DNA of 64,000 nt from Candidatus Peribacteria bacterium (GCA_018652265.1 JABICL010000030.1:6818-70817), one strand, 5' to 3'; shown: positions 6,488 through 63,734, numbered from the stretch's first letter. Program-made: numbers and translations. Notes: generated by a model not told the origin, from the letters alone.

Positions 6488-6548
6488 AGCGATCTGCGTT
6501 CAGCGTTCAGCGTTCCGCAGCAAAGCAAAAAACGGATCGCGGATCGCT
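6488..6548. repeat. Heptad-repeat palindromic element (empty form of the 27083-27515 cassette)
   Basis: gcgatct gcgttca gcgttca gcgttcc ... cggatcg cggatcgct; ends AGCGATCTGCG / CGCGGATCGCT are inverted; left end identical 11-mer to 27082-27092. Confidence 0.8.
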
Positions 6549-6551
6549 AAT

Positions 6552-7262
6552 CTATGGCATCACTTTTGTCCCTACCTCCTCACCTTTTACAACTTTCAAC
6601 AAATTCCCCTTTTTACCAAAATCGAAAATAATCAACTTCATTCCCTGATCACGACAAAGGCTAAGTGCTGCTTGATCCATTACCTGCAAATTCTTTTCTA
6701 TGGCATCTTGCAGAGTTATAGAATCATATTTCTTGGCATCTTTGTTCGTATTTGGATCTTTATCGTAGACTCCATCTACATTTGTAGCCTTCAGTATCAC
6801 ATCACAATTAAGCTCAAGAGCCCGAAGAGCTGCAGCTGAATCAGTAGTAAAATATGGATTTCCGGTTCCTCCAGCACATATTATTACTCTCCCCTTCTCT
6901 AGATGCCTAACTGCACGCCTCCTTAGATATGGTTCTGCAAGTTGTGGAACATCTACAGCAGAACAAACTCTAGTCATAGCACCATTTGATTCTAATGACG
7001 CCTGCAAACCTACTGCATTCATTATGGTTGCTAGCATTCCCATTGCGTCACTTGCTGTTCGTTCTATTCCAGCCTCCTTTTTGTCACGATATCTCCAAAT
7101 ATTTCCTCCGCCTATAGTTACAGCTACTTCAACGCCTTCTTTCATTACAGAAATAATCTCTTCGGAGATATTAGCAATAGCCTCATCATCCAATCCATAT
7201 TCATTGTTTCCAGAGAGAGCTTCTCCGGAAAGCTTTAGCATTATTCTTTTGTATTTAGACAT
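6552..7262 (-). CDS. pyrH: UMP kinase
   Basis: KRIMLKLSGEAL and GGGNIWRY motifs; ORF-track N-terminal 42 aa is read-through of repeat B; ATG 7262 has TGcTACAAT 7 nt upstream. Confidence 0.93.
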   Translation of the reverse strand: MSKYKRIMLKLSGEALSGNNEYGLDDEAIANISEEIISVMKEGVEVAVTIGGGNIWRYRDKKEAGIERTASDAMGMLATIMNAVGLQASLESNGAMTRVCSAVDVPQLAEPYLRRRAVRHLEKGRVIICAGGTGNPYFTTDSAAALRALELNCDVILKATNVDGVYDKDPNTNKDAKKYDSITLQDAIEKNLQVMDQAALSLCRDQGMKLIIFDFGKKGNLLKVVKGEEVGTKVMP

Positions 7263-7312
7263 TGGGGAGATTGTAGCATATATGGCTGTGCCACGTGGTA
7301 ACGCTTGAAACT

Positions 7313-7993: not shown

Positions 7994-7995
7994 AA

Positions 7996-11974: not shown

Positions 11975-12064
11975 ATGTCATGCTGAGCCGTACTGAGCGA
12001 GCTGAACTTGAAGCAGAGCGAAGCGAAGCTTAAGTTCTGCAAGACGAAGTGCGTGTCGAAGCAT
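11975..12064 (+). repeat. Repeat family A, copy 3
   Basis: 90 bp between convergent purA and 12068..12337. Confidence 0.9.
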
Positions 12065-12782: not shown

Positions 12783-14819
12783 GTGGGACTTGCAAACGAG
12801 ATAACAATCCGGCACTTAAAAACAACCGATACTTACATCGAGGCTCTAAATGAAATTGGAATAAGAAAAATAGAAGATCTGATTCTATATCTACCACGTG
12901 CGTATGAAGACCTTTCTCAAATGCAAAAACTTGCAACTGCGCAAGAAGGAGACAAAGTAACTATCAGAGGAACCGTAAGTAATTTAAAACTTGTAAGAAC
13001 AAGGACCGGAAAGAAATTGGTACAAGCAGATTTCACAGATACAGATGGAACTGTGTGCAAAGTAGTTTGGTTTAATCAGCCACATATAAAGAGAATGCTA
13101 TCAGATGGAGAAGACATCGTACTCACTGGAAAATTGGTTCGAACAGGTAAAAAATTCACATTACAAAGCCCTGTATTTGAATCAGGTAATCGTGAAATGC
13201 TTCTTCATTCTGGTCGTATAGTTCCTGTATATCCACAGCATGATGTAATAACTACTAGATGGCTGAGGGAGAAAATGGCACTTGTTAAAAATGTTATAAG
13301 TGATCTGCCGGAAACGTTACCAGAAGAGTTGATAAGTGGTCAGTGGTTAGTGGCTAGTGGTCAGTCGAAGGATCAGAATGAGGAAAGTAAGAAGCTTATG
13401 CCAAGAAATGAAGCAATAATGCAGCTGCACTTTCCTGAATCTGGTGAACTTTTGAAACAAGCACAAGACAGAATATCTTTTGAAGAGCTTTTTAATCTGC
13501 AACTAATTGCGCTTAAAAGAAAACAAGAATGGCAAGCAGAATCTCAGGATAGAATAAAAATTCCTATGAACGTAGAACTTATAAAATCATTTTTTGCTTC
13601 TCTTAAATTTACTCCTACAGATAGCCAAAGAATTGCAATCTATGAAATATTGAAAGATCTAGAAAAGCCAGTGCCTATGTCTAGGCTTCTGGAAGGAGAC
13701 GTAGGATCAGGTAAAACACTAGTTGCAACTGCAGTTATCGCAAATGTGCTCTATTACAACGGACAATGTGCTCTTATGGTTCCTACAGAAGTTCTCGCCA
13801 AGCAGCACGCTGCAAATATAACTAAACTTCTAAATAAAACATGTGTTGCTCTTCTTACTGGGTCTACCCCGAAGAAGGAGGCACAGGAAATAAAACTAGG
13901 CCTTGCTCGTGGGACTATAGACGTAGTTATAGGTACGCATTCACTTATACAGCCAGATGTGAAATTTAAGGATCTTAGATTCGCAGTAGTAGATGAACAG
14001 CATAGATTCGGTGTAGAGCAGAGAAATAAATTAAAAGCCAATGGCTCTCCACATTTCCTATCTATGACTGCTACTCCTATTCCTCGAACGCTAGCTCTCA
14101 CTGCATACGGAGATCATGATCTATCTGTACTGCTCGAAAAGCCTGGAAACAGAAAGTCTATTAAAACAAAAGTAGTTTCACCGAAAGATCGTCGCACAGT
14201 AGAATTATTTATAGATAAAGAAATAGAAGATGGCCGGCAGGCATATGTAATCTGCCCACTTATTACAGAAAGTGATGAACTCGCAGAAGTAAGAAATGTA
14301 ACTTCAGAAGCAAAAAGATTAAAAGAAATATTTCCACGTCGAAATATTGCACTACTTCACGGAAAGCTTACTCCAAAAGAGAAAGATGAAATCATGGGAG
14401 AATTCAAAGAGAAGAAATCAAACATTCTAGTTTCTACCTCTGTAATAGAAGTAGGAATAGATGTTCCAAATGCATCTATAATTCTTATAGAAGGATCTGA
14501 ACGCTTTGGCCTTTCCCAACTTCATCAATTACGTGGTCGTGTAGGACGAGGAGATCATCAGAGTCATTGTTTTTTGTGTACTACAGACGTCGCACAAGCA
14601 AGCTCACAGAGACTGAAGGCTATGGAAAAATTCACTGATGGGTTCTATTTGGCGGAAGTAGATCTAAAGCTAAGAGGTCCTGGCGAGTTGTATGGAACCC
14701 GCCAGAGCGGCATGCCGGAGATTCGAGCCTCCTCACTCACTAATCCTGAGCTGGTTGTAAGAGCGAGGAGGGCGGCGGAATTGTTTCTTGATAAGAAAGA
14801 GGCTCTAATAATCAATTAA
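12783..14819 (+). CDS. recG: ATP-dependent DNA helicase RecG
   Basis: Wedge domain plus SF2 helicase: GDVGSGKT, VVDEQHRFG, ..QLRGRVGRG; start set to GTG 12783 (TATTAT 7 nt upstream) instead of ORF-track 12735, which overlaps the divergent gene. Confidence 0.9.
   Translation: MGLANEITIRHLKTTDTYIEALNEIGIRKIEDLILYLPRAYEDLSQMQKLATAQEGDKVTIRGTVSNLKLVRTRTGKKLVQADFTDTDGTVCKVVWFNQPHIKRMLSDGEDIVLTGKLVRTGKKFTLQSPVFESGNREMLLHSGRIVPVYPQHDVITTRWLREKMALVKNVISDLPETLPEELISGQWLVASGQSKDQNEESKKLMPRNEAIMQLHFPESGELLKQAQDRISFEELFNLQLIALKRKQEWQAESQDRIKIPMNVELIKSFFASLKFTPTDSQRIAIYEILKDLEKPVPMSRLLEGDVGSGKTLVATAVIANVLYYNGQCALMVPTEVLAKQHAANITKLLNKTCVALLTGSTPKKEAQEIKLGLARGTIDVVIGTHSLIQPDVKFKDLRFAVVDEQHRFGVEQRNKLKANGSPHFLSMTATPIPRTLALTAYGDHDLSVLLEKPGNRKSIKTKVVSPKDRRTVELFIDKEIEDGRQAYVICPLITESDELAEVRNVTSEAKRLKEIFPRRNIALLHGKLTPKEKDEIMGEFKEKKSNILVSTSVIEVGIDVPNASIILIEGSERFGLSQLHQLRGRVGRGDHQSHCFLCTTDVAQASSQRLKAMEKFTDGFYLAEVDLKLRGPGELYGTRQSGMPEIRASSLTNPELVVRARRAAELFLDKKEALIIN
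13335..13369 (+). repeat. Heptad block AGTGGNN x4 (+1) in-frame inside recG
   Basis: agtggtc agtggtt agtggct agtggtc agtcgaa encoding SGQWLVASGQS. Confidence 0.85.
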
Positions 14820-16257: not shown

Positions 16258-16390
16258 AAAATTTTCAATTCATAATTTTCAATTTTCATTCAATTTTCAA
16301 GATCTAATTCTCAATTTTGCAGAATTCGCATGTTTGAAAATTGGCTCATTGATCCTTGAATGAAAATTAGAAATTTAAAATTGTAAATTA
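16258..16390. repeat. AATTTTC-type heptad block and inverted GAAAATT block in the ruvC / transferase intergenic region
   Basis: aattttc aattcat aattttc aattttc attcaat tttcaag (16258-16318) faced by ttgaaaatt ... tgaaaatta gaaattt aaaattg (16334-16390). Confidence 0.7.
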
Positions 16391-16447: not shown

Positions 16448-17506
16448 ATGTCTGAAGCTCTGACATTTCTACTTTATTCAACAACAATCTGCCTCCTGCT
16501 TCACATGCTCGCATGTGCAGTATTTCCAAATTTCAAACTACTAGATAAGCCAGAAAAATATGGACTCAAAAGAAAGCCTCTTCCATATCCAACGGGCATA
16601 GCATCCGTAATTGCATTTATTTTGATGTTCACCGTTGCTCAGACTCCCCTATCTTTTCAAGCAAAAGGACTATTGCTAGGAATTGGTCTACTCACATTCA
16701 CTTCGATAATAGATGATATAAAAAGTCTTCCAGCCTGGGCAAGGCTACTTATTCAAGCACTAATCGCATTTATAATATTTGCAGCAGGCACTCGCATTTA
16801 TACAATCACAAATCCACTTGGAGGAATAATAAAACTAGATACTATAGACATTCATCCAGCACTACTCACTACTCACTACTCACTACTCACTAAGATAGGA
16901 CCTCTTCCATTCGCAAGTGGTCTTTTCACAATAGCTTGGCTTCTTCTCACTACTAATTCGTTCAACTGGCTAGATGGCATACCAGGACAAGTAAGCATTC
17001 TCTCTTTTATAGGAGGAATAACACTTGGAATACTTGCGCTAAGCTCTAGAGTAGATCAACCAGAGATTGCTATAATTTCTTTTATAGTCGCAGGAATCGC
17101 ACTTGGTAGTGCTGTTTTCGATCTACCTCCAAACAAAACTGTAATGGGAGATACTGGAGCAATGTTTTTTGGACTCATGCTTGGAACAATAAGTATTTAT
17201 GCAGGAGGAAAAGTAGCAACTGCTTTGCTTGTAATGGGAGTGCCACTTATCGATGCAGCACTAGTAACAACTAAAAGGATTATAAAAGGTAGATCTCCAC
17301 TAAAAGGAGGAAGAGATCATCTTCATCATATGCTTATAGACAATAGGCAATGGACTGAATCTCAAGTAATACTTCTTACAGCAGCACTTGGAACTTCATT
17401 TGGAGTTTCTGCATTATTTATGAGCACATTAGGAAAATTTGCCGCCATCGTATTACTTGGAATTGTAATGCTGCTTATCACTAGATATGCATCTAAGAAA
17501 AACTAA
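16448..17506 (+). CDS. Polyprenyl-phosphate HexNAc-1-phosphate transferase (MraY/WecA family)
   Basis: 352 aa, about 10 TM; NWLDGIPGQ and MGDTGAMFFG motifs; TACAAT 6 nt upstream of ATG. Confidence 0.85.
   Translation: MSEALTFLLYSTTICLLLHMLACAVFPNFKLLDKPEKYGLKRKPLPYPTGIASVIAFILMFTVAQTPLSFQAKGLLLGIGLLTFTSIIDDIKSLPAWARLLIQALIAFIIFAAGTRIYTITNPLGGIIKLDTIDIHPALLTTHYSLLTKIGPLPFASGLFTIAWLLLTTNSFNWLDGIPGQVSILSFIGGITLGILALSSRVDQPEIAIISFIVAGIALGSAVFDLPPNKTVMGDTGAMFFGLMLGTISIYAGGKVATALLVMGVPLIDAALVTTKRIIKGRSPLKGGRDHLHHMLIDNRQWTESQVILLTAALGTSFGVSALFMSTLGKFAAIVLLGIVMLLITRYASKKN
16860..16894 (+). repeat. Perfect heptad tract (CACTACT)x4 + cactaag inside the transferase gene
   Basis: Read directly; encodes LLTTHYSLLTK. 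Confidence 0.95.
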
Positions 17507-19140
17507 CCTCCTTCCTCTTTCGAATCAGACCTAGCAGACAATATCCTCATATTTGTCATAGGTTCGCCATCTGCAGTAAAGGCTCCTCTTACAGCAGGAA
17601 TCACTGTCTTTATGCCACGTGGAATCATTCTTATAAATGCACGTCCTCTACTATCAAATTGCTCCTGAGTAATTACAGAAGGAGAGAAATCCGCTTCGCC
17701 AAATGAAGCCTGCAAATGAATTTCTCCTTCAAATTTTACATTCTTTATAAAGTTTCCATCTTCATCTCTTGCATAAAGAACTATCTCTTCCCAATCTTTA
17801 TCGAAATCACCATCGTGAAGAATCGTAATACTAGAAACAACGTGTGAAACCTTTGGCATTTGCATATCGGTTTCGGCAGTAGAGCGTGATTCTGCAATTT
17901 CTGATTCATCTTCCCCTGCCCCGCGAAGTTCGTCCGCCACGGCGGACGACGAAGTGGGGTCTACAACTTCTATAACCTCCTTGTCTTCTATTGCCTCTTC
18001 CTCCGGCTCTATAAACAACTCCGAATCTACATTCGAATCCACCACCTCCACAACTTCGCTCACAATTACCTGCTCTTTATTACTTCTTCTTCTCGCAATT
18101 CTTGCGGCAACATTTTCGCGTAATTTTTCTATAAATGTCTTTCCAGAAAGAACTACAGAAGCAGTTATTTCTTCTGAAGATAACTCTTCTTGTTTTTCTG
18201 ATTTTACAATTGCCATACCATTCTCCATTCCCCAATCTCTATAATTTTCGATGTAAGCCAAAGGATTAATTGTATATTGCTCTGCCCTATCTTTTCCTAA
18301 TCCATTATCTACTGCCTCTATAAAACTAAGCCCTGCTTCAGTAGCTTCTGAAGTTGTAAATGGCCAATAGGGATGGAAAGGAGCCTCTCTATCTATCTGG
18401 AAATGTAGATGTGGTGCAGTTGCAAATCCAGTCTGTCCAGTAAGAGCAATTTGCTGTCCTTTTTGAACAATTTCACCAATGCTCACATACATTTTTCCTA
18501 AGTGAGCATAATTCGAATATAGAACTTCTGTCTTATCTGGATCATCTACGTTTGGAACACCTGGATGTTTTATAACCACGGTATTACCAAAACCATATCC
18601 TCTTTCTACAACTCTTGTTACTACTCCATTCATTACAGATACAACTGGAGTTCCTTTGGGAGTAAGAAGATCTGCAGCAGGATGACTACCACAATTAAGT
18701 CCACCAGAATCATAATCACCATTGTAATCAACAGATAAAATACTTCTATTGTGACCTGCATCATCTCCACATCCACGTGCAGGGAGATAAGAAGGAAGTG
18801 ATACAAGTAATTCTTCCGGAACATCTGTGAAATCAAAATTTCGATTTCCACCTCCCCATCTACCAGGATCAGGCACTACAGGAAGTGGTGACACCGCTCC
18901 AGTAAATACTATTTCTGCCTCTTGTCCCCAAACAGATTTCCAGAATGCTCCCCATCCATGCTGTCCAACCATGTTTCCTACCAGAAATGCAGCACAGGAA
19001 AAAAGGGCCAACCAAAAAGACCATCTCTTGCTAAGGAATCCCTTCATAGACTCCGTAGGTTGCCTGTATAGTGCAGAAACTGAATAGTGATGAGCGTCAA
19101 ACATTTTTGTTTTTGTTACTATATAATATACCATAATCAT
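17503..19140 (-). CDS. M23 (LytM-type) metallopeptidase with N-terminal anchor and long C-terminal extension
   Basis: GYGFGNTVVIKH ... YAHLG ... APHLHFQI motifs; start uncertain (M1, M13 or M32). Confidence 0.85.
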   Translation of the reverse strand: MIMVYYIVTKTKMFDAHHYSVSALYRQPTESMKGFLSKRWSFWLALFSCAAFLVGNMVGQHGWGAFWKSVWGQEAEIVFTGAVSPLPVVPDPGRWGGGNRNFDFTDVPEELLVSLPSYLPARGCGDDAGHNRSILSVDYNGDYDSGGLNCGSHPAADLLTPKGTPVVSVMNGVVTRVVERGYGFGNTVVIKHPGVPNVDDPDKTEVLYSNYAHLGKMYVSIGEIVQKGQQIALTGQTGFATAPHLHFQIDREAPFHPYWPFTTSEATEAGLSFIEAVDNGLGKDRAEQYTINPLAYIENYRDWGMENGMAIVKSEKQEELSSEEITASVVLSGKTFIEKLRENVAARIARRRSNKEQVIVSEVVEVVDSNVDSELFIEPEEEAIEDKEVIEVVDPTSSSAVADELRGAGEDESEIAESRSTAETDMQMPKVSHVVSSITILHDGDFDKDWEEIVLYARDEDGNFIKNVKFEGEIHLQASFGEADFSPSVITQEQFDSRGRAFIRMIPRGIKTVIPAVRGAFTADGEPMTNMRILSARSDSKEEGG

Positions 19141-20230
19141 GCAATTTGGTCAATCACCAGAAATCGTAAATTTGGCTTCTACAAGCGAAATGGAGACGAT
19201 TTGCATCGGAAAATCGCTCGCAAGCAGCATCTATCAAAATAACACCACAATGTGGCTGTATGGGGACCTAGGAGCTGGGAAAACCACCTTCGTAAAGGGT
19301 CTTGCAGAAGGCTTAGGCATTTCTGATCCAATCACTAGTCCAACCTATGCCTTGGAGAATAGATATGGTTCGACAAGCTCACCAGAGCCTAATAATAAAT
19401 TACTACACGCAGACCTATATAGGCTTAGCTCGTCTGATGCTAAAAAATTCGTAGAAGAAACTGAAGAGTTTCCTGGCGTTAGAGTTGTGGAGTGGAGTGA
19501 AAGACTTTCCTCGTCCGAGCTCTCCTCGACCGAGCGCCAAAGCGCGAGTGGAGAGACAACCTCTCGATTCGTCCTTCGACAAGCTCAGGACTCACTCGAG
19601 GAAAGCACGATGAATAGCAAATCAATACATATAGAATTTGAAGAAATCTCTGAAACAAAACGTAATATAAAAATTACCTTCAACGATGCAAAAATCCCCT
19701 CTCGCAAGCAAATAGAAGAATGGAGAGATGATGTGAAACTTCCAGAGCATATCTGCGCTCACAGTGATGCTGTAGGAAAATTTGCTGAAGAACTTGGGCT
19801 TAAGCTTCTAAAAAAAGGAATAGTAAATCGTCCCCTACTTCTTAAGGCCGCCGGAGAAGCACATGATTTACTTAGATTTGTAGATATAGATTCATCAGAT
19901 AAAGAAGATGTTTGGAAAAAATTGGGAGAAAAATATCCCGGTCGCCACGAAGAAGCATGTGCTAATTTTCTAGAAGATGAAGGCTACAGCGAACTCTCAT
20001 CTGTCATCCGTCCACATAGCCTTCTATCACTTGATGATCCAAATGCATTCTCTACTGTGGAACAAAAAATTCTTTTCTATGCAGACAAAAGAGTACTTGG
20101 AGAAAAAGTTGTTAGCTTAGACGAAAGATTCGATGACTTTATTGTTCGTTACGGAAAAGGAGTGGAATCCGAGGATGCTAAGAGGTGGAGGAAGATTACG
20201 AAGGAGATGGAGAAGGAATTTATTTTCTAA
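19139..20230 (+). CDS. tsaE: TsaE (t6A ATPase) fused to an HD-domain phosphohydrolase
   Basis: GDLGAGKTTFVKGL P-loop, VVEWSE; C-terminal H..HD pattern (HSDAVG, EAHDLLRF); repeat C copy 1 sits in-frame in the TsaE part. Confidence 0.8.
   Translation: MQFGQSPEIVNLASTSEMETICIGKSLASSIYQNNTTMWLYGDLGAGKTTFVKGLAEGLGISDPITSPTYALENRYGSTSSPEPNNKLLHADLYRLSSSDAKKFVEETEEFPGVRVVEWSERLSSSELSSTERQSASGETTSRFVLRQAQDSLEESTMNSKSIHIEFEEISETKRNIKITFNDAKIPSRKQIEEWRDDVKLPEHICAHSDAVGKFAEELGLKLLKKGIVNRPLLLKAAGEAHDLLRFVDIDSSDKEDVWKKLGEKYPGRHEEACANFLEDEGYSELSSVIRPHSLLSLDDPNAFSTVEQKILFYADKRVLGEKVVSLDERFDDFIVRYGKGVESEDAKRWRKITKEMEKEFIF
19505..19605 (+). repeat. Repeat family C, copy 1 (in-frame in tsaE)
   Basis: 101 bp with perfect 9-bp terminal inverted repeat CTTTCCTCG/CGAGGAAAG; modules GCTCTCCTCGACCGAG, CGAGTGGAGAG, GTCCTTCGACAAGCTCAGGA; encodes LSSSELSSTERQSASGETTSRFVLRQAQDSLEES. 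Confidence 0.9.
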
Positions 20231-20552
20231 CATATCTAAGAGTATTCCCTCTTCTTAAATATATAAGAGATAAACTGTCTTCTGTAAGTTCTGAAATCGA
20301 GTATTTGAAATCCTCGTCATCCCCAGACACAATCAAGTATATCTCGTTCACAAAACTTTCGACCACAAAAGGTGCAGAGGAAATTAATTCCTCATCATAG
20401 ATATCTTTTTTCACATCACCCTCGAAAACTATCTTGCTACTGCTATCATCAGTGGAAATCCATTCTCCTTGAATGAGGTCAGATAAATTTTGATTGTCTG
20501 ATGTACAACCGATTGCCAATAAACAAAATATTAATATAAAAATTCTCTTCAT
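20220..20552 (-). CDS. Small lipoprotein
   Basis: 110 aa; lipobox LLAIGC at residues 11-16. Confidence 0.6.
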   Translation of the reverse strand: MKRIFILIFCLLAIGCTSDNQNLSDLIQGEWISTDDSSSKIVFEGDVKKDIYDEELISSAPFVVESFVNEIYLIVSGDDEDFKYSISELTEDSLSLIYLRRGNTLRYVRK

Positions 20553-20602
20553 GAAGAGAGTGTATCATCAATTTTAATAACCAAAACTGATATACTAAAA
20601 TC

Positions 20603-21214
20603 ATGCCCACAGCAGATGACATTTATATACACTGCGATGAGCTAGATAATATTCCTCCAATCTGTAAGAAGAATTGGGAGTTTGAAATCTCTCTGCTTGC
20701 GACAAAGCTAAAGCCGAATGCAAAGGTATTACAAGTTGGTTGTATGGATGGGACAAGAATTATTGCACTACTAAATACTAGACCAGATCTCGATATAACC
20801 GGGTTAGATATCGAGCAGAGCATGGTGGATAGCTGTAATGCTAATCTGGAGAAAGTTGGGAAGAAAGCCACTGTGATTCTGGGAGATATCACAAAACCAG
20901 TTCCAGTATCTGATTTTGATTATGTAATTTGTCTAAACAACACACTTGGATATATCCCCGATCAAGAAGCATCACTTAAGAATATGAAAAACTTAGGAGA
21001 AAAAGTAATCATCTCAGTATTTGGAGAAGGATTTGATGATGAAATTTCAAAATCATATTTCACATCTATCGGACTTACAGTTCAGTCTATAGATGGAGAT
21101 ATGTTTGTGATGGATGATTTCGTAAATGTACTTAGATATTCAAAAGATGTTGTAGACAACTGGGATGGGAAAATAACATACACTCCGCTTGGGTATTTTT
21201 GTGAGATTGGATAA
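20603..21214 (+). CDS. Class I SAM-dependent methyltransferase
   Basis: Motif I VLQVGCMDG; TATACT 6 nt upstream of ATG. Confidence 0.75.
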   Translation: MPTADDIYIHCDELDNIPPICKKNWEFEISLLATKLKPNAKVLQVGCMDGTRIIALLNTRPDLDITGLDIEQSMVDSCNANLEKVGKKATVILGDITKPVPVSDFDYVICLNNTLGYIPDQEASLKNMKNLGEKVIISVFGEGFDDEISKSYFTSIGLTVQSIDGDMFVMDDFVNVLRYSKDVVDNWDGKITYTPLGYFCEIG

Positions 21215-21221
21215 GCATTAA

Positions 21222-21476
21222 CTACTTCCATTCTCCATTTATTAGCTTCTCTTTCTTTTCTCTAGTCCATTTCTTGATTTGCAACTCTCTTTTTCTTGCT
21301 TCAGATTTTCCAATAAATGCATCTGAGGCATAAACAAGTTCAAAGGGCCCCTGATTAATTGCAAATCTAGAACCTTTTCCTGAGTTATGTTCTCTCATGC
21401 GCTCTTCTGCATTCGTTGTAATGCCAACATAATATCTTCCAGTATTTGCACGAGCTATGTAAACAAACCATGCCAT
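21222..21476 (-). CDS. GIY-YIG nuclease family protein (small, UPF0213-like)
   Basis: 84 aa; FVYI..GRYYVGITTN..R..EHN pattern; TATGAT 8 nt upstream of ATG. Confidence 0.85.
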   Translation of the reverse strand: MAWFVYIARANTGRYYVGITTNAEERMREHNSGKGSRFAINQGPFELVYASDAFIGKSEARKRELQIKKWTREKKEKLINGEWK

Positions 21477-21513
21477 GATAAGTAATCATAACATCTTTTG
21501 TGATCTTTCTATT

Positions 21514-23725: not shown

Positions 23726-25336
23726 GTGCATATGGAAGCAAAGACCCCATTTGAAGGAAGTAAATTAAACCGGTATCATCCGTTAGACATGTCATTTAGT
23801 ATTCGACACTTACATCAAGAGGATAAGAAGAGCGCTAAAAATATATTCAAAAACGTTAAAAAAACATTTCCATGGAAAATGGTTTTTGGATTTGCTTTTA
23901 CAGTAGGTAAGCCACTTTTTGAACTTGGCCTCAGATTGCATGAAAGACAACAAAAAAGAGCACGCTTCAAAAGAATGATATCTATAGGAATATCTATAGT
24001 GGTAGTAATAGCTATAACACTCATAACATTTTCTCTTATAGTAAAAATTGGCGGGGCTTCTTTTGGAACGTTTACAAAAATGTCTGCCATGCCAACAGGA
24101 TCAAATGATAGTGGCATTACGAATATGCTTGTTCTAGGACAAGGAGATGAAAAAGGAATAGATCTCACAGACTCAATAATGGTTGTAAGTATCGATCCAG
24201 AAAAAACCGAAAGTATAATGGCTCTTTCTCTTCCTCGTGATCTTTACTTCTTGCATACAGACTCTATGGAGACAGAGAAAGGCAAGCTTAATCTTCTCTG
24301 GAGAGATAACAGAATACTTATAGGGCAAAATCAGGGATTGGATAAAGAGGAGGCATCTATGCTTTCTATGAGACAGCTCGCAGACGAGATAGGGAATGCT
24401 TTAAACATAGAAATACATCACACAGTAAAAATAGACTTCGAAGCATTTGAAAAGGTAGTAGATACAATAGGAGGCTTAGATGTAGAGGTCGCAGAAGAGA
24501 TTCATGACGAAGAATATCCAGATGAGAATTATGGATATCAAATATTTCATCTAGATGCAGGGCAGCAACACATAGATGGAGCAACAGCCCTTAAATATGT
24601 GCGTACCAGATCAACAACAAGTGATTTTGATAGATCTAGAAGACAACAACAAGTTATGAGTGCAGCAATTGCTCGTGCAAAAGAATCAGGCCTTCTAAAA
24701 AAACCACACAAACTACTAGAGCTGTATTCCATATTATCTGCGCACATAGAAACAGATTTAAAAACCAGACAGATGGTATATCTTGCAAATTTAGCAAGAG
24801 ACTTAAACAGAGACAATTTTGTCACGTTGCAGCTTAATAATGTAAATGGACTATACGGAGATCAATTATTCAAAGGAGGACTTCTTTATGCTCCACCTAG
24901 AAATTTATTCGAAGGAGATTCAGTATTATTACCAGTTTCTATTCCTGAATTTCCTGTTACCTGGAAACAAGTTCAATTTCTTTCTAAATTATTTTTCACA
25001 GAAAGAAATCCTCATATAGCATCACCATCATTTACCGTTTTAAATGGAGGTGCTCCAGAAAAATCTGCAGGAAAAGTTGCTAGAGAATTTAAGAAATTTG
25101 GATTCGATTTGGCAGTTGTATCAAATACCCCTCGAAAAGAGGAAGTGACAGAATCCTTCATAAGTGCAAATAATGCCGATTTTGACCCTCAAATAGTGGA
25201 ATATTTCTCTAATTTAATTGGTATTCCAGCCAAAGAATTACCAGATAGCATTCGCGAAAAAGCCGAAGGAGACGTTACAATAGTACTTGGTAAAGATTTT
25301 GAATTTAATTACTTCCAGAATTTCATTCTTCCTTAA
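23726..25336 (+). CDS. LytR-CpsA-Psr (LCP) family protein with C-terminal LytR_C-like domain
   Basis: N-terminal TM; DSIMVVSIDP..LSLPRDLY..ALKYVRTR motifs; start GTG 23726 or ATG 23732. Confidence 0.85.
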   Translation: MHMEAKTPFEGSKLNRYHPLDMSFSIRHLHQEDKKSAKNIFKNVKKTFPWKMVFGFAFTVGKPLFELGLRLHERQQKRARFKRMISIGISIVVVIAITLITFSLIVKIGGASFGTFTKMSAMPTGSNDSGITNMLVLGQGDEKGIDLTDSIMVVSIDPEKTESIMALSLPRDLYFLHTDSMETEKGKLNLLWRDNRILIGQNQGLDKEEASMLSMRQLADEIGNALNIEIHHTVKIDFEAFEKVVDTIGGLDVEVAEEIHDEEYPDENYGYQIFHLDAGQQHIDGATALKYVRTRSTTSDFDRSRRQQQVMSAAIARAKESGLLKKPHKLLELYSILSAHIETDLKTRQMVYLANLARDLNRDNFVTLQLNNVNGLYGDQLFKGGLLYAPPRNLFEGDSVLLPVSIPEFPVTWKQVQFLSKLFFTERNPHIASPSFTVLNGGAPEKSAGKVAREFKKFGFDLAVVSNTPRKEEVTESFISANNADFDPQIVEYFSNLIGIPAKELPDSIREKAEGDVTIVLGKDFEFNYFQNFILP

Positions 25337-25363
25337 TTGTTAATTATTCATTGTTAATTAATT
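25336..25363. repeat. Heptad block ATTRTTN x4 ending 1 nt before an ATG
   Basis: attgtta attattc attgtta attaatt, then t-ATG (25365). Confidence 0.8.
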
Positions 25364-25364
25364 T

Positions 25365-26402
25365 ATGACTCCTAGAGAAATAATTGCCGAATCATGGCTA
25401 ATTACTACAAAGCACAAAAACAAGCTGCTTTTCTGGGGAGCTCTTGATGCATTTATACTAATGGTATCAGCAATGATATTTGTAATGTATCAAAGTTATG
25501 TACTTGGTGCATTCTTTCGAGATGGAGAGACTGCATCATGGAAAACAGTAATAGAAGTAATATCAACACCACTACAAGGCAATACTGCAATAATGATCAC
25601 CTTGATAGTGCTAGTAGCAATATATTTGATTTTATGGACTGTGATTCCTAGATTTGCAACTGCAGCGCTTATAGGGTTATCTGCAAAAATTCACTGTGGA
25701 GACGAGCCAAAAGGAGGTGTGGTTCTTGCATTCTTTAACTTCTTTGCACTACTTGAGCTCGCAGCAGCTCTTGGGCTTATAGGAGCCAAAATGCTCTTTT
25801 CTCTGTGGTCTTTGGCAGTTAGATACATGTCTGCAGGTGATGGAAGTGGAATATTCACCTTAAGCGCAATTCTTATAATTCTATGGTGTGTTTCATTTAT
25901 ATTTCATTTTCTCTTCACATTTGCAGAAGAGGCAGTGGTTATTAGAAAGTTTGGAGTATTTAAAGCATTGGGACAGAGTTTTAAATTGGTTCTTTCTTAT
26001 CTAACAAAAGTAATACTTATTGCGGTACTTCTACTCATAATAATTCTTAGGATAGTAGTAAATGCCATAGTGATATTTCTAATACCATCCCTGGTAATGG
26101 GGCTAGGATTTCTATTTATGAGATTTATGCCAGAGGTAGTAAGTTTTGGGATAAGCGGTGGAATAGGACTCCTAATAGTAATTGTCGCAAGCTACTTCTT
26201 GGGATACGTAACAGTATTTAAACATACAGTCTGGACCATTACTTACCTAGAGCTATCCAAAGAAAAAGAATTAGATGTTATAGAGACAGAAGAAATTACA
26301 ACAAAGAATAAAAGGGAAACAGAAGAGATAGAAGATAAAAAAGAAAAAGAAGAAACAAAGGAGTCAGAAGATCCAGAAACAGAGCTAGAAACTAGCAATT
26401 AG
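25365..26402 (+). CDS. Multi-pass membrane protein with acidic C-terminal tail
   Basis: 345 aa, 7-8 hydrophobic segments, E/K-rich tail; no named family. Confidence 0.6.
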   Translation: MTPREIIAESWLITTKHKNKLLFWGALDAFILMVSAMIFVMYQSYVLGAFFRDGETASWKTVIEVISTPLQGNTAIMITLIVLVAIYLILWTVIPRFATAALIGLSAKIHCGDEPKGGVVLAFFNFFALLELAAALGLIGAKMLFSLWSLAVRYMSAGDGSGIFTLSAILIILWCVSFIFHFLFTFAEEAVVIRKFGVFKALGQSFKLVLSYLTKVILIAVLLLIIILRIVVNAIVIFLIPSLVMGLGFLFMRFMPEVVSFGISGGIGLLIVIVASYFLGYVTVFKHTVWTITYLELSKEKELDVIETEEITTKNKRETEEIEDKKEKEETKESEDPETELETSN

Positions 26403-26414
26403 AAACTAGCAACT
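26387..26414. repeat. Heptad block (agaaact agcaatt)x2 spanning a stop codon
   Basis: agaaact agcaatt agaaact agcaact; the TAG stop of 25365..26402 lies inside. Confidence 0.8.
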
Positions 26415-26423: not shown

Positions 26424-26462
26424 TTGACGGTGTACAACCGTGCAGGTATACTCTCGTATACC
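26424..26462 (+). promoter_or_regulatory. lexA promoter with overlapping palindrome (candidate LexA operator)
   Basis: TTGACG (26424-26429) -17 nt- TATACT (26447-26452); perfect palindrome GGTATAC-tctc-GTATACC 26445-26462 ends at the ATG. Confidence 0.6.
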
Positions 26463-27082: not shown

Positions 27083-27110
27083 GCGATCTGCGATCCGCGG
27101 TCTGCGATCC
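27083..27110. repeat. Heptad block GCGATCY x4, left flank of the four-helix-bundle gene
   Basis: gcgatct gcgatcc gcggtct gcgatcc, starts 3 nt after the lexA stop. Confidence 0.85.
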
Positions 27111-27129
27111 GATTTCCATAGAATTTACC

Positions 27130-27516
27130 ATGATGAAATTATCATTCAAGGATCTAAGAGTTTGGACTAAGGGAATAGAACTTGTAGACATTGTCTACAG
27201 AATTACAGAGGGTTTTCCTAAAAATGAATTGTATGGTCTCACTTCTCAATCAAGGCGTTCTGCAGTATCTATACCATCTAATATTGCCGAAGGTAGTCAA
27301 AGAACATCTGACAAAGAATTTGGAAATTACATTTTAATTGCCAAGGGCTCTCTTGCTGAACTACATACACAAATGATAATTGCAAATAGGCGCGGCTGGC
27401 TGAATTCCTCAAAAGAGAAAGATTTATTCACAATAATAGATGATTTGAGCAAAATGTTATATTCACTACGCAAAAAACTGAACACGGAGCGCGGAGCGCG
27501 GATCACGGAACGCTAG
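27130..27516 (+). CDS. Four-helix-bundle protein (23S rRNA intervening-sequence protein family)
   Basis: KDLRVW, SIPSNIAEG, AKGSLAELHTQ motifs; TAGAAT 5 nt upstream of ATG 27130. Confidence 0.8.
   Translation: MMKLSFKDLRVWTKGIELVDIVYRITEGFPKNELYGLTSQSRRSAVSIPSNIAEGSQRTSDKEFGNYILIAKGSLAELHTQMIIANRRGWLNSSKEKDLFTIIDDLSKMLYSLRKKLNTERGARITER
27481..27515. repeat. Heptad block, right flank of the four-helix-bundle gene
   Basis: aacacgg agcgcgg agcgcgg atcacgg aacgcta; CGCGGATC complementary to GATCCGCG in the left block; includes the stop codon. Confidence 0.8.
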
Positions 27517-30129: not shown

Positions 30130-30135
30130 TTATAA

Positions 30136-30231
30136 ATGTCATGCTGAGCCGTGCTGAGCAAGTTGAACTTGAAGCAGAGCGACAAAGTCGCGATGCTTAA
30201 GTTCTACGAGTCGAAGTACGTGTCGAAGCAT
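30136..30231 (+). repeat. Repeat family A, copy 4
   Basis: 96 bp between convergent 29743..30129 and pnp. Confidence 0.9.
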
Positions 30232-30241
30232 ATAGGGCAGA

Positions 30242-33180: not shown

Positions 33181-33212
33181 ATTGTTCATTATTCATTATT
33201 CATTGTTCATTT
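33181..33212. repeat. Heptad block ATTRTTC x4 (+1) overlapping a stop codon
   Basis: attgttc attattc attattc attgttc atttt. Confidence 0.85.
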
Positions 33213-45977: not shown

Positions 45978-46012
45978 GCTAATCGCTAATCGCTGCCTGC
46001 TAATCGCTTACT
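45978..46012. repeat. Heptad block GCTAATC x4 (+1) at the rplL stop
   Basis: gctaatc gctaatc gctgcct gctaatc gcttact. Confidence 0.8.
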
Positions 46013-46430: not shown

Positions 46431-46473
46431 AGTATTTGGGGGAATTAATAATGAATAATTAGTAATAAATAAT

Positions 46474-47004
46474 TTAAGATTCTTTATTTTTTGCAACTTC
46501 GTTTACTGCTCTAGCAAAAGCACCAAGTGGACTTCCACACATGCTTGCAAAGTTTCCAAGAGGAGCACGAAGCATGGCTGCAAACTTCGAAAGTAATTCT
46601 TCTTTGCTAAGCATCTTCGCAAACTCTACTGCATCCTCTTTTGAAAGAAGCTTGCCATCTACAACTCCGCCAACGATTTCTACTGCATCATTTTTCTTGC
46701 CAAATTCAAATGCAACTTTGGCTCCACTTATTTCATCTTCGAAACTAAAAACAAAAGCAATTGGCTCATTGCCAAAAGCCTCATCAGAAACTTCTGGATA
46801 ACCCTCCTCTTTAGCTGCAATATTAAATAATGTTTTCTTGGCTACTTTCATTCTCGCATTCTTCTCCAACATCTTTCCTCTTAGATCATCAATATCAGAA
46901 ACACTAAGCCCACGATATTTCATGAAAGCGAGTGACTTTGTCTTCTTGATTGCATCTCTTATGTCTGCAACCTGTGCCTTTTTCTGATCTTTTGTAAGTG
47001 CCAT
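46474..47004 (-). CDS. rplJ: 50S ribosomal protein L10
   Basis: 176 aa, L10-like throughout; upstream of rplL. Confidence 0.92.
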
Positions 47005-47011: not shown

Positions 47012-47046
47012 AGTGGGTAGTGGTTAGTGGGTAGTGGTTAGTCACC
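47012..47046. repeat. Heptad block AGTGGNT x4 (+1), 8 nt upstream of the rplJ ATG
   Basis: agtgggt agtggtt agtgggt agtggtt agtcacc. Confidence 0.85.
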
Positions 47047-51723: not shown

Positions 51724-51819
51724 ATGTCATGCTTAGCCGTACTGAGCGAACTGAACTTGAAGCAGAGCGACGAAGTCACGATGCTTAAGTTCAGTGAGAC
51801 GAAGTACGTGTCGAAGCAC
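51724..51819 (+). repeat. Repeat family A, copy 5
   Basis: 96 bp; supplies the last 9 codons and stop of idi (..STRTSSH). Confidence 0.9.
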
Positions 51820-59215: not shown

Positions 59216-59268
59216 ATTGTCTATTATAGCACATGGAGCAGTTTTTGTTTACCTACGATATATTTAGA

Positions 59269-59303
59269 AGTGGCTAGTGGGCAGTGGGCAGCGGATAGCA
59301 AAC
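59269..59303. repeat. Heptad block AGTGGNN x3-4 (+1)
   Basis: agtggct agtgggc agtgggc agcggat agcaaac, directly abutting repeat C copy 4. Confidence 0.8.
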
Positions 59304-59388
59304 AGCTCTCCTCGACCGAGTTCGCCGCGGCGAACGAGTGGAGAGGTAGCCTCTCGACATTCGCCTTTGGCGAATGCTCGAGGAAAGC
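59304..59388 (+). repeat. Repeat family C, copy 4 (intergenic)
   Basis: agctctcctcgaccgag-ttcgccgcggcgaa-cgagtggagagg..cctctcga..ctcgaggaaagc. Confidence 0.88.
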
Positions 59389-59487
59389 ACAACGAGCTGA
59401 GAAGCTATAAGTGTTATATAATTTGCTCTTTCATCAAAAATCTGTTAAAAAGTACGAGTAATTTTATTTTTTATCCCAATTCTTACT

Positions 59488-59628
59488 ATGTGTGGCGACG
59501 AAAACCCAACACCAGAAGCAGAAGTAAAAGAAGGCGGTTGCTGTAAAGAAGGAGAATGTGCAGCTCCTGATGCAGCTCCTGCAACAGAAGAAGCAACTCC
59601 AGAAGCAACAGATGCTCCTGCTGCTTAA
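59488..59628 (+). CDS. Small acidic Cys-containing protein (46 aa) MCGDENPTPEAEVKEGGCCKEGECAAPDAAPATEEATPEATDAPAA
   Basis: Below the ORF-track size cutoff; genome-typical codons; followed by a strong plus-strand terminator; no -10 box or SD at canonical distance. Confidence 0.35.
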   Translation: MCGDENPTPEAEVKEGGCCKEGECAAPDAAPATEEATPEATDAPAA

Positions 59629-59656
59629 TTAACTTTACAAAGTTTTTTAGATAAAG

Positions 59657-59687
59657 CGCGATACCCTAGGTATCGCGTTTTGTTTTT
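59657..59687 (+). terminator. Intrinsic terminator after the small ORF
   Basis: CGCGATACC-cta-GGTATCGCG + TTTTGTTTTT; no other plus-strand gene upstream, which implies a plus-strand transcript here. Confidence 0.7.
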
Positions 59688-62029: not shown

Positions 62030-62171
62030 AACACTATACGGCTTCGCCGTTTTAAAAAATACTTATTAATTTTATTTATATCATCAAAATTGATCTCCGA
62101 TCCCGCTACGCCGCTATTATTCTCAATATTATTCATACACATTAATCATGTTTTAAATGCAAACTCACACC

Positions 62172-63734
62172 TCACTCCTCCATGTATCTAAATATTTCCT
62201 TGAATCTCAAGGTTTCACTTAGGCGAAGCCCTGTCCATTTACCTAGGAAGATGTTTACAACAATCGTAAGAAATACAGTTTCTGGATAAGCAATTATAAG
62301 AGATTTCAGAACCGCCCACTGCACTATTACAAAACATACTAGTGCAACAATAACCGTCTCTCCTACTGCCATAAGAGCGTTTCTAAGTCCCATCTCTGCT
62401 TTTACGCTCATAAACTCTTCAGAAAGAGTGGCCATTATAAGAAGTATAAAAATAGTATCTGGAGCCAATGTAATTCCAAAAGAAGCAGCAACCGCAAGTA
62501 CCACTAGAAGCACAAGACTAATAACCGTAAGAATAGTTGCGATCTTTGGAAAATAAAGAAGTCTATACCTCTTCATAAATGCACGAGTTAGATATCCCGC
62601 AAAAAGAATCACAGCAAGAAGCACAAGTCCTATCTCCCATCCAAGTGCAACAAGAGATAATGTAATTACAGCAGGCGTATACAAACCAAATGTAGTCACT
62701 CCTACCACTTGTTTCAGGAAAGTAATAATCGTAAGAATAAGAGGAAGCATAAGTAGAAGAATTATCATCTCGCTACTTACTCCTTTTGTAACCATATAAT
62801 TTACTAGAGTAGAAAGAATATTCCATGGCCTTATGGCAAAAGTTGCTTCGTCTACTATAGAGAAATCTATATCTCTTTTTTCTATCTCAGAAACAAACTC
62901 ATGCACATCCCCTACTTCTATAAGAGGATTTATCGCTTCTTTTCTGGTTATAACTATCTTCTCTGGATCGAGCACAGAGAAAGGCCCCTGAATTACACGC
63001 GAAAGCTGTTGAAGCCCTCCATCGGTTATTAGAACTATTGTTTGTGATCCTATTAGAGAAAGTGTTTCTTCATCTTGCTGCAAAGCTCTAGACAATGCGT
63101 TCATCGCAGTCGCTCCATCTGCCCAGAGAATAATTGCTTCAGCTCCTAGAAATCTATCTGTATTCTCTGCAATCATTTTCGTCATTACATCTTCGGTTCC
63201 AAGCGGAATCGTAAGCGCTTCGGCATGCATTATGTCTACCAATACTCCTTTTTCCTCTCCATTTGATTGATGCAGTGCTAGCTTTTCTTTCTCTACATTT
63301 GGTCCAGCAACTAAAATCAACTTCCTCTTATATACAGTTATATCCTGAGTAACTTCTGCCTCTCTTTTTGTATTGTTTAATAAATCACTAACCTGAAGAG
63401 TAATTTTATATTTACCAGGCTCATTTAATGTAAGTAGTGCTTCTTCGGATGTACTTATAGCCTGTCCATCTCTTAACCACTTATACGATACTGTATCTGG
63501 ATCTGCCGTAGAGTGAGATGCATCTAGAAGAATCTTCTTTCCTTGGCTTACATTCGATGGTCCTGTGATTACTGCTCTAAGTTCACGTGGGGCATCGGAT
63601 ACTTCCGGAACTTGGGCCAGTGCTATATACGGGACAAGTAAAATAGTGACAAGTGACAAGTGACAAGTGACAAGTAACTTTCTGCCCACTGCCCACTGCC
63701 CACTGCCCACTCGTCCAAATTTCAAATAAATCAT
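62172..63734 (-). CDS. PKD domain + unknown alpha/beta domain + 7TM domain of the kind usually fused to an inactive transglutaminase
   Basis: PKD-like (YKWLRDG..GKYKITLQVSD); C-terminal seven helices beginning LKQVVGVTTFGLYTPAV and ending GKWTGLRLSETLRF; N-terminal signal region encoded by heptad blocks. Confidence 0.6.
   Translation of the reverse strand: MIYLKFGRVGSGQWAVGRKLLVTCHLSLVTILLVPYIALAQVPEVSDAPRELRAVITGPSNVSQGKKILLDASHSTADPDTVSYKWLRDGQAISTSEEALLTLNEPGKYKITLQVSDLLNNTKREAEVTQDITVYKRKLILVAGPNVEKEKLALHQSNGEEKGVLVDIMHAEALTIPLGTEDVMTKMIAENTDRFLGAEAIILWADGATAMNALSRALQQDEETLSLIGSQTIVLITDGGLQQLSRVIQGPFSVLDPEKIVITRKEAINPLIEVGDVHEFVSEIEKRDIDFSIVDEATFAIRPWNILSTLVNYMVTKGVSSEMIILLLMLPLILTIITFLKQVVGVTTFGLYTPAVITLSLVALGWEIGLVLLAVILFAGYLTRAFMKRYRLLYFPKIATILTVISLVLLVVLAVAASFGITLAPDTIFILLIMATLSEEFMSVKAEMGLRNALMAVGETVIVALVCFVIVQWAVLKSLIIAYPETVFLTIVVNIFLGKWTGLRLSETLRFKEIFRYMEE
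63645..63710. repeat. Convergent pair of heptad blocks: AGTGACA x4 (plus sense) and AGTGGGC x4 (minus sense)
   Basis: agtgaca x4 at 63645-63672; tgcccac x4 at 63683-63710; together encode GSGQWAVGRKLLVTCHLSLVT. Confidence 0.9.

Follow-up and report, generated by a model that had tools for sequence, protein, structure and literature searches.

What are the short blocks of tandem heptanucleotides that recur along a 64,000-nt stretch of DNA from a marine member of the Peregrinibacteria, and how did they arise? Throughout this text, the window refers to the whole of this stretch, one strand, with coordinates counted from its first letter. Tandem heptamer repeats have been known since 1990 from the short tandemly repeated repetitive (STRR) sequences and are over-represented in many bacteria, their origin and function being unexplained. 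The answer to which we lean, with somewhat better than even confidence, is that the blocks are heptanucleotide tandem arrays, typically 28-33 nt long with 4-4.7 units, that they belong to the kind represented by STRR sequences in Nostocales, by GGGAATC repeats in Xanthomonas and by TAACTGA repeats in Beggiatoaceae, that they are born by slippage, and that a subset of them has been recruited as the arms of stems. To this known kind of repeat, the present case adds units of heterogeneous sequence, a host from the candidate phyla radiation (CPR, or Patescibacteria) and arrays that are translated. The source is a metagenome-assembled genome (MAG), and homologues of the hypothetical protein encoded at 25365-26402 (hyp345) are named Candidatus Peregrinibacteria or Peribacteria.

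Arrays in the window were detected with Tandem Repeats Finder and with an independent scan (at least four units, at least 80% self-match). About 15 period-7 arrays of roughly 4-4.7 units are present. Tandem Repeats Finder placed them at, or within a few bases of, every locus where the original prediction had described four-unit heptamer blocks, and added one array absent from that list (46443-46474) and a weak one at 18218-18239. The independent scan gave 12 hits of period 7, corresponding to 9-10 distinct arrays, and, with the same thresholds, no array of period 5, 6 or 8-15 in the real sequence of the window. The shuffling control that had been proposed for these blocks gave a clear result, since thirty dinucleotide-preserving shuffles contained no array at all; chance and low complexity are thus excluded as their source, both by the shuffles and by the other periods. 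The same threshold applied to 50 kb of Escherichia coli K-12 returned a single weak period-7 row. Both the window and the relatives described below carry 7-nt units, head to tail, in excess over chance and over neighbouring periods, which is what defines the class of over-represented heptanucleotide repeats. The arrays are as follows, with the extents given by Tandem Repeats Finder (TRF) in brackets.

6488-6515 (4 units) and 6533-6548 (2 units), minus strand: GCGWTCN-type inverted pair with a 17-nt loop, in the pyrH-frr spacer (TRF 6488-6515 and 6533-6547)
13335-13369, plus strand: AGTGGNN x4.4 inside recG, in frame, translated as SGQWLVASGQSK, with the codon phase taken from coordinates (TRF 13335-13365)
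16258-16318 with inverted partner 16334-16390, no strand assigned: AT-rich AATTTTC-type arrays in the divergent spacer between ruvC and a glycosyltransferase-4 gene (TRF 16260-16318)
16860-16894, plus strand: CACTACT x4.7, units 100% identical, in the glycosyltransferase-family-4 ORF (open reading frame), translated as LLTTHYSLLT (TRF 16860-16892)
25336-25363, plus strand: ATTGTTA/ATTATTC x4, making up the entire 28-nt spacer between a LytR-family gene and hyp345 and ending 1 nt before the ATG at 25365 (TRF 25333-25359)
26387-26414, plus strand: AGAAACT/AGCAAYT x4, overlapping the hyp345 stop, just 5' of the lexA promoter-like TTGACG...TATACT (TRF 26385-26414)
27083-27515, plus strand: 433-nt cassette resembling an intervening sequence (IVS), with the 5' arm (GCGATCY)x4 at 27083-27110, starting 2 nt after the lexA stop, and the 3' inverted array at 27481-27515 (TRF 27083-27109 and 27485-27513)
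about 27133-27516, plus strand: 23S_rRNA_IVP / four-helix-bundle gene (PF05635, TIGR02436) in the cassette
33181-33212, minus strand: ATTRTTC x4.4, overlapping the stop codon of a trpR-like gene (TRF 33181-33211)
45978-46012, minus strand: GCTAATC-type array overlapping the rplL stop, upstream of a Trp/Tyr-tRNA synthetase gene (TRF 45978-45994)
46443-46474, minus strand: AATTAAT/AATAAAT x4.6 (period 14 x2.3), directly after the rplJ stop in the rplJ-rplL spacer
47012-47046, minus strand: AGTGGGT/AGTGGTT x4.4 (period 14, 100% match), 7 nt upstream of the rplJ ATG (TRF 47012-47042)
59269-59303, no strand assigned: AGTGGSY-type array with a degenerate 3' end, between a mechanosensitive-channel-like gene (minus) and a small Cys-rich ORF (plus) (TRF 59276-59291)
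63633-63711, minus strand: two abutting arrays, on the gene strand (AGTGGGC)x4.3, a 7-nt spacer and (TTGTCAC)x4-6 (TRF 63633-63675 and 63682-63711)

Many of these arrays adjoin start or stop codons, and the positions initially reported are right (for example 25336-25363, 27083, 33181-33212, 45978-46012 and 47012). The intergenic spacers of this lineage are, however, very short, with a median of 32 nt between same-strand genes, so that a 30-nt block touching a start or stop codon is almost inevitable. The arrays also mislead gene callers, which give the IVP gene as 127 or 151 aa and the trpR-like gene as 95 or 101 aa.

RNA folding divides the arrays into two groups. Lone arrays are unstructured, among them the one at 47012-47046, which on the mRNA strand reads ACCCACU ahead of rplJ (identified by its L10 Pfam match), and the one at 16860-16894. 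The claim that the blocks are not hairpins holds for these, and fails for the inverted pairs, which form long stems. Among the pairs that had been proposed, 27083/27481 and 16258/16334-16390 are real, the latter folding into a long imperfect hairpin of about 130 nt (-35.5 kcal/mol, z -5.4, with 0/200 shuffles as good), and the two others are weaker. The pair at 6488-6548, which begins 3 nt past the stop of pyrH (UMP kinase) and precedes frr (RRF by Pfam), folds into a hairpin (-23.4 kcal/mol) whose advantage over shuffles is modest (z -1.7); the arrays at 63645/63683 can pair as a weak, G-U-rich hairpin (z -2.1). Two known kinds of element were rejected as identities for the blocks: REP/MITE-type palindromic repeats (repetitive extragenic palindromes or miniature inverted-repeat transposable elements), given that the units differ between loci and that lone arrays do not fold, and HutP-like (UAG-N4)n RNA sites, given that a period-7 TAG occurs in some arrays, lies on the wrong strand for rplJ and is absent in others. 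Rfam matches in the window are confined to tRNAs.

The arrays inside ORFs of the window (recG, the glycosyltransferase gene and 63633-63711) are translated. The NCBIfam match of RecG runs uninterrupted over residues 24-691, and the array there would form a variable loop of the protein, while the array at 16860-16894 is spanned by the Pfam domain match. The two arrays at 63633-63711 fall within the first ~30 codons of a PKD/7TM-transglutaminase ORF and are translated as ...GRVGSGQWAVGRKLLVTCHLSLVTILLVPYIALA, plausibly a signal peptide to judge from the translation.

To place the window in its lineage, we used eighty metagenomic loci that encode relatives of hyp345, about 890 kb in all (887 kb; about 850 kb after deduplication). 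Heptamer arrays occur elsewhere in the lineage, across the clade. The relatives hold 84 period-7 arrays of at least four units in 887 kb, compared with 8 of period 5, 52 of period 6, 14 of period 8, 4 of period 9, none of periods 10 and 11, and 3 of period 12; period 6 is a multiple of three, as expected of coding repeats. Their density ranges from zero in some 20-kb loci up to 0.6 per kb, and the unit sequences are highly diverse. With the arrays masked, a diffuse 7-nt periodicity of all non-coding DNA could be rejected (0.271 at lag 7 vs 0.272-0.274 at lags 6 and 8), and the lack of a residual signal indicates that the arrays are discrete entities.

The arrays also have a characteristic size. 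The copy numbers of period-7 arrays in the relatives are distributed non-monotonically (2.5 units, 50 arrays; 3.0, 17; 3.5, 39; 4.0, 21; 4.5, 52; 5.0, 7; 5.5, 5; 6 or more, 6); they peak at 4.5 units and break off above 34 nt, whereas periods 5, 6, 8 and 9 decay monotonically. The preference for n + 0.5 copies means that a repeated core is present once more than the full unit, the outcome expected of a duplication between short direct repeats. Perfect arrays range over 2.5-4.5 units and decayed ones are concentrated at 3.5-4.5, in keeping with arrays that grow to about 4.5 units, then stall and decay. The cap at about 4.5 units, with growth stopping near 32 nt, is common to lone, paired, coding and non-coding arrays.

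Location is biased as well. Arrays are about 40-fold enriched outside coding sequence, with 1.8 per kb in same-strand gaps, 1.4 in convergent and 0.47 in divergent ones, vs 0.04 in coding sequence, and the start of most non-coding arrays falls in a zone from -20 to +9 nt around a stop codon. Inside genes they have preferred sites. In valyl-tRNA synthetase (ValRS), at least 10 of 28 species have translated arrays that fill the hypervariable linker joining the catalytic domain to the anticodon-binding one; each of these species uses a unit of its own, and the peptide acquires a 7-residue periodicity. The site lies between 'CE.AGVDP' and 'LSLADRALL' (ValRS genes at L035 5424-8120, L026 14412-17075 and 26 others in loci L016-L089). 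DinB and an HGSNAT-like acyltransferase hold comparable hot spots.

The history of the arrays can be followed by comparing species. In a sister species, whose hyp345 is 89% identical in amino acids and whose gene order is unchanged, no array of at least 3.3 units was found in 21 kb. Of the 28 indels that separate both sequences, three measure 7 nt, two 14 nt and one 28 nt. The LytR-hyp345 junction (25336) has 2 units in the sister vs 4 in the window, a 14-nt indel; the hyp345-lexA junction (26387) has 2 units in the sister by eye (14 nt), where the automated alignment lists only a 7-nt indel at 26397; at the trpR-like stop (33181), the sister has unrelated sequence and no array, with a 28-nt indel. 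In more distant species, about 40% of the orthologous sites carry at least 2.5 heptamer units, mostly of a different or drifted unit, against a coverage of only roughly 4% of intergenic sequence by arrays (a rough estimate from counts and gap lengths). The comparison of orthologous loci that had been suggested thus finds that array positions are kept across species while the units and their number change. Within the population, the picture is static: the window PNPase is also encoded on contigs from eight samples (including MAG GCA_018655505.1), which are 99.9-100% identical to the window and align without gaps over 20242-42476, with five arrays inside. There is no copy-number variation at the assembly level in this population. 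The idea of slippage hot spots therefore stands for the origin of the arrays, given the 7-, 14- and 28-nt indels against the sister, and falls for present-day hypervariability.

Altogether, the arrays turn over by duplication and deletion in a 7-nt register, and they occupy places under weak sequence constraint, namely short spacers between same-strand or convergent genes, last codons and stops, variable loops and a predicted signal peptide. Many species carry the array sites while the unit sequence changes. The preferred explanation would be that polymerase or strand slippage with a preference for 7 nt generates the arrays, that their growth stalls at about 4.5 units and that point mutation then decays them, a subset being recruited as the paired arms of long stems. 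Lone arrays would probably have no sequence-specific function. The 7-nt period and the size of ~4.5 units are retained although unit sequences vary freely, an argument that period and length are what counts rather than sequence. Arrays persist at given sites across species, even in essential genes, as their sequence turns over, and the heptamer phenomenon extends to a candidate-phylum lineage with tiny genomes.

The inverted pairs form a class of their own. An inverted partner lies within 1.5 kb of 44 of 130 Peregrinibacteria arrays, vs 4 for shuffled-unit controls, at distances of either 4-57 nt (hairpins) or about 370-425 nt. Pairs of the ~400-nt class enclose a 23S_rRNA_IVP / four-helix-bundle gene (PF05635, TIGR02436), with locus L024 as the sole exception. 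The Peregrinibacteria IVP gene has a conserved place after lexA and before uvrC or dinB, is flanked by heptamer arrays in 13 of 14 cases, and has arm units that vary by species, yet both arms remain complementary. In the window, the pair 27083/27481 constitutes the terminal inverted repeats of the 433-nt IVP/S23p cassette, whose terminal stem (about 26 pairs over ~30 nt) encloses the ORF in both minimum-free-energy and centroid folds. In the sister species, lexA and uvrC have no IVP gene between them. If rRNA intervening sequences are a guide, the stem may serve RNase III processing or act as a stabilising structure, and it would set the IVP message apart from lexA and uvrC. As for the proposal that the blocks act as transcript punctuation, this is the most plausible reading of the inverted pairs, with their long stems, and does not extend to the unstructured lone arrays. 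A more general version, with complementary flanks around every gene, was rejected in a noisy test (duplexes of -47.5 vs -48.4 kcal/mol for mismatched gene pairs).

Three other loci show variants of the bracket. In L024 (5478-5947), the ~470 nt between inverted GGGGAGA/CCCCTCN-type arrays encode, by eye, a small DUF559/Vsr-like protein, and other cargo may use the bracket in the same way. In L041 (2750-2840, between lexA and dinB), only two inverted arrays (GTATTAG/ATACATA) remain, 39 nt apart, and the hairpin looks like a cassette remnant without its ORF. In L052 (9873-9946 and 10912-11006), a hairpin of AATGACC arrays with TTGGTCA partners stands on both sides of hyp345, about 1 kb apart and in direct orientation; TTGGTCA is the STRR2 unit of Calothrix.

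The architecture of the cassette recurs across phyla. One genome per GTDB species was queried with an alignment of the Peregrinibacteria IVP proteins, which returned 80 loci from Bacteroidota, Acidobacteriota, Planctomycetota, Verrucomicrobiota, Clostridia, Proteobacteria, Nitrospirota, Cyanobacteria, Patescibacteria, Omnitrophota and Methanophagales. Among 86 IVP genes of other phyla with usable flanks, 72 are accompanied by period-7 arrays, 48 on both sides and 24 on one, while control periods 5, 6, 8 and 9 give both-side arrays at only 1-6 of the 86. An arm unit matches the complement of its partner at 5.9 of 7 positions vs 3.7 for shuffled partners. The arms are also polar, with AGT in 32/63 of the 5' arms vs 3/57 of the 3' arms and ACT the other way round (4 vs 29), so that both ends tend to read (AGTNNNN)n from the outside in, as in terminal inverted repeats of common descent. 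The brackets have a median outer span of 466 nt and arms whose length varies from 2.5 to 14 units without peaking sharply at five. Units like AGTGGTT flank IVP genes in Thiohalocapsa, Ruminococcus and Chthoniobacterales and equal those of the window lone arrays at 13335 and 47012. In PLSDB, this query detected an IVP/S23p homologue on 33 of 72,556 plasmids, of which about 25 are from Nostocales and the rest include Riemerella, Azospirillum and Gemmatirosa; the copy on a Nostoc punctiforme plasmid is flanked by (AGTCAGG)4.5 and its complement, and that on a Calothrix plasmid by (TTAGCTG)n and (GCTAAAA)n. The IVP/S23p four-helix bundle is a relative of the pentameric Avd protein of diversity-generating retroelements. 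Among solved structures, the one nearest to it is that of XCC0516 from Xanthomonas campestris (2GSC, five chains), and the published table of Xanthomonas repeats places a 28-nt, four-unit GGGAATC array across the start of the XCC0516 gene (PMC4692102). Full-text searches of the literature, which were not exhaustive, returned no link between heptamer repeats and the IVP family and, in agreement with the original prediction, no description of such repeats in Peregrinibacteria. A small family of unknown function, PF05635, is thus bracketed by arrays across phyla, including the taxa where heptamer repeats were first described.

A separate observation concerns the order of units. In four-unit arrays of Peregrinibacteria and of the cross-phylum set, units 1 and 4 differ at 0.56-0.64 positions, compared with 1.2 for adjacent units and 1.1 for units two apart. 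This likeness appears as a 21-nt periodicity, 'ABCA' being the commonest order in the cross-phylum set, and may be an artefact of end-trimming or delimitation.

Several points weigh against a slippage origin with neutral lone arrays. The sharp mode at ~4.5 units is not predicted by simple slippage and holds even in coding arrays, where steps of 7 nt shift the frame. Growth by successive doubling (7 to 14 to 28 nt) is true for two window loci and is not general, as the ABAB order it would leave is rare (1/61 and 2/81 arrays). AGT/ACT is mildly enriched in lone arrays (36% vs 21%), and AGTG-type units recur in the window. The occupancy of ~40% of orthologous sites set against the ~4% coverage fits selection as well as it fits a scarcity of truly free segments. 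Two relatives (L035 and L026) have one and the same (AGTGGAA)x4 array in ValRS genes that are 71.5% identical overall and 49% at third positions. No other stretch of identity in these genes is as long (42 nt), which hints at a constraint on DNA or RNA. Finally, the slippage mechanism, RNase III cleavage and the neutrality of lone arrays are all inferred.

The main rival explanation is a trans-acting factor with heptad periodicity, for which 4-5 tandem heptamers, as DNA or as RNA, would be the binding site. The IVP/S23p protein, whose own gene is bracketed, is the best candidate for it, and lone arrays would be its targets for regulation, processing or even the generation of arrays. The brackets around IVP genes in many phyla, with their outside-in AGTNNNN polarity, speak for such a factor, as do the AGTG class of the window lone arrays, which is the commonest in IVP arms elsewhere, the peak of array size at 4-5 cores, the retention of one array in the two diverged ValRS genes, the five chains of 2GSC together with the GGGAATC array at the start of its gene, and the near confinement of plasmid IVP homologues to Nostocales, the classic STRR taxa. 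However, a single sequence-specific protein-binding array, as initially suggested, is difficult to square with the roughly 8 unrelated unit types of a single window, where even the arms of the IVP cassette (GCGATCY) are unlike the lone arrays. A local IVP gene does not predict array density (0.15 vs 0.12 per kb, p = 0.45), IVP arms lack a sharp size peak, AGT is not enriched in paired Peregrinibacteria arrays, and both the binding of arrays by the IVP protein and a functional 2GSC pentamer are assumptions. We regard this explanation as tentative and unlikely, though worth pursuing. A broader proposal, which we would likewise call improbable, joins the IVP gene and its inverted (AGTNNNN)n arrays into one widespread selfish or formerly mobile cassette of Bacteroidota, Acidobacteriota, Planctomycetota, Verrucomicrobiota, Clostridia, Proteobacteria, Cyanobacteria, CPR and some archaea. 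IVP would here be the partner of the STRR, Xanthomonas, Beggiatoa and present repeats, binding, processing or propagating 4-5-unit arrays genome-wide, with the lone arrays as its targets or footprints. The IVP bracket makes the old question of heptamer repeats testable, as a crystal structure of XCC0516 exists and both Xanthomonas and Nostoc are genetically tractable.

Lone arrays could also be cis elements, either unstructured spacers for ribosome loading or re-initiation in operons, or frame-independent stops, 7 being coprime to 3. They do cluster around stop codons, in same-strand and convergent rather than divergent spacers, they are unstructured as RNA, and the TAACTGA repeats of Beggiatoa likewise end a few nucleotides before start codons (PMC4679880). 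As many as 40% of the arrays close all three reading frames vs 2.4% of control 31-mers; but this property is as frequent in antisense (38.5%) as in sense, which makes it a matter of arithmetic, and selection for it was rejected. Composition bias of the sense strand is weak, arrays occur inside ORFs too, proximity to codons is forced by the short spacers, and the sister species lacks arrays at the same gene junctions, where it has 14-nt or unrelated spacers. We therefore give a cis role little credence. Even less probable, to the point that we hardly entertain it, are contingency loci, in which hypermutable repeats would switch genes through copy number. Tandem repeats near gene starts and ends and in ORFs, with a unit that is not a multiple of 3, would suit them, but the arrays are short (4-5 units) and mostly interrupted, the genes affected are housekeeping ones (recG, valS, rplJ/L, lexA), and the eight assemblies show 0 gaps over five arrays, no sign of the within-population differences in copy number by which phase-variable loci are recognised. 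Slippage-born arrays with recruited stems thus remain the reading that we favour.

Other features of the window and of the sister species deserve mention. An intergenic repeat of ~100 nt, which is not one of the heptamer arrays, has at least 5 copies in the window (4220-4325, 5811-5900, 11975-12064, ~30130-30240 and 51724-51818) and is conserved in the sister (L010 13996-14108). Two inverted copies bracket an aminotransferase gene (4329-5822) and would form a near-perfect duplex of ~85 nt (-149 kcal/mol); the repeat looks like a REP/MITE-like element or a terminator module. Directly upstream of lexA, both the window (26424-26462) and the sister (L010 11040-11076) have the promoter-like TTGACG-N17-TATACT enclosing a GTGTACAACCGTGCAGGTATAC motif, which is probably the promoter and operator of lexA. 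The window UvrC (27531-29726) has 731 aa and a GNAT acetyltransferase domain at about residues 480-605, and that of the sister (L010 11712-13613) has 633 aa, without the domain. The region 20220-21480 holds a HicA/HicB toxin-antitoxin pair and a lone 84-aa GIY-YIG ORF beside tRNA-Ile, and the sister has another insert there, with GCS2 and GATase genes (see also L001 20150-21255). The small ORF at 59490-59628 (plus strand) specifies an acidic, Cys-rich peptide of 46 aa (MCGDENPTPEAEVKEGGCCKEGEC...); two GC-rich hairpins (59305-59385) precede the ORF, and a clean hairpin-plus-T-run terminator (59645-59685) follows it. The 450-nt spacer 59216-59665 was considered as a decayed IVP cassette and rejected, as it holds this ORF and the terminator instead.

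How do these arrays compare with known systems? Contiguous 7-bp units are also the operators of the ribbon-helix-helix repressor omega of pSM19035, which are WATCACW heptads, direct or inverted, of one consensus and placed in promoters. One relative (L026) has an array, AATCACN x5, that resembles this heptad; unlike omega operators, the units described here vary by site and are depleted from the divergent spacers that bear promoters. The cassette at 27083-27515, and it alone, invites comparison with rRNA IVS elements, such as that of the Coxiella 23S rRNA, with 428-444 nt, an S23p ORF and a 28-bp terminal stem cut by RNase III (PMC4990558). Like the Coxiella and Leptospira elements, the cassette, of 433 nt, has a single PF05635 ORF and an enclosing terminal stem of ~26-30 bp, and its size and plan fall within those of the class (~430-760 nt, a PF05635 ORF and a terminal inverted-repeat stem). 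Unlike them, it lies in a protein-coding operon (lexA-IVP-uvrC/dinB; between lexA and uvrC here) and not in helix 9, 25 or 45 of 23S rRNA, no rRNA having been found in the window. Its arms are tandem heptamer arrays, and it is vertically inherited at this locus across Peregrinibacteria.

The STRR sequences, which the original prediction had named as the closest analogue, share with the present arrays the arrangement of dispersed, intergenic tandem heptamers. Their units reportedly include CCCCAGT, TTGGTCA and CAACAGT, after Mazel et al. in 1990; none of the three occurs in the window, and an array of TTGGTCA is found in one relative, L058. Two of these units fit AGTNNNN/NNNNACT, and IVP genes on plasmids of Nostoc and Calothrix, both STRR taxa, are flanked by inverted heptamer arrays. 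STRR sequences differ in having few unit families, high copy number, often longer arrays and a distribution in one cyanobacterial order, whereas the present arrays are heterogeneous, capped at about 4.5 units and found in another phylum. The STRR repeats of heterocystous cyanobacteria are also mentioned in the work on Xanthomonas discussed below (PMC4692102).

The TAACTGA direct repeats of marine Beggiatoaceae (MacGregor 2015) come in 2-6 copies, mostly intergenic and ending a few nucleotides before start codons, also in ribosomal-protein operons and occasionally inside ORFs, with canonical Shine-Dalgarno sequences rare nearby (PMC4679880). The arrays of the window resemble them in being heptamer direct repeats, mostly intergenic, near start codons and at times within ORFs; unlike these arrays, TAACTGA is a single unit genome-wide, consistently oriented towards the downstream gene, with inverted pairs in only 1 of 170 cases.

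The closest parallel is provided by the GGGAATC repeats of Xanthomonas campestris and X. axonopodis (Rehm et al. 2015). These have mostly four units, with 70 of 186 in convergent inverted pairs; they are 89-93% intergenic, with the upstream ORF on average 28 nt away, and lie mostly between ORFs of the same direction, 16% being in convergent and only 7-8% in divergent spacers; between close species, their position is kept while length and sequence change (PMC4692102). According to Mrazek 2007, as cited in that work, an excess of heptamer repeats is general in bacteria, the idea being that 7 nt corresponds to the stretch of DNA gripped by the polymerase (PMC4692102). The Peregrinibacteria arrays share with the Xanthomonas repeats the mode of 4-4.5 units, the paired fraction (44/130), the proximity to the upstream stop and the depletion in divergent gaps. 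They differ in their units, as Xanthomonas has one G-rich, G-quadruplex-capable GGGANTN family and the window about 8 unrelated, mostly AT-rich or mixed ones, none with four G3 tracts; in their length, which rarely exceeds 5 units as opposed to up to 26; and in their host, a CPR bacterium with a genome of the ~1-Mb class. The initial analogy with STRR was therefore apt, since the anatomy of the arrays matches that of the published heptamer repeats, and most precisely that of the GGGAATC repeats of Xanthomonas.

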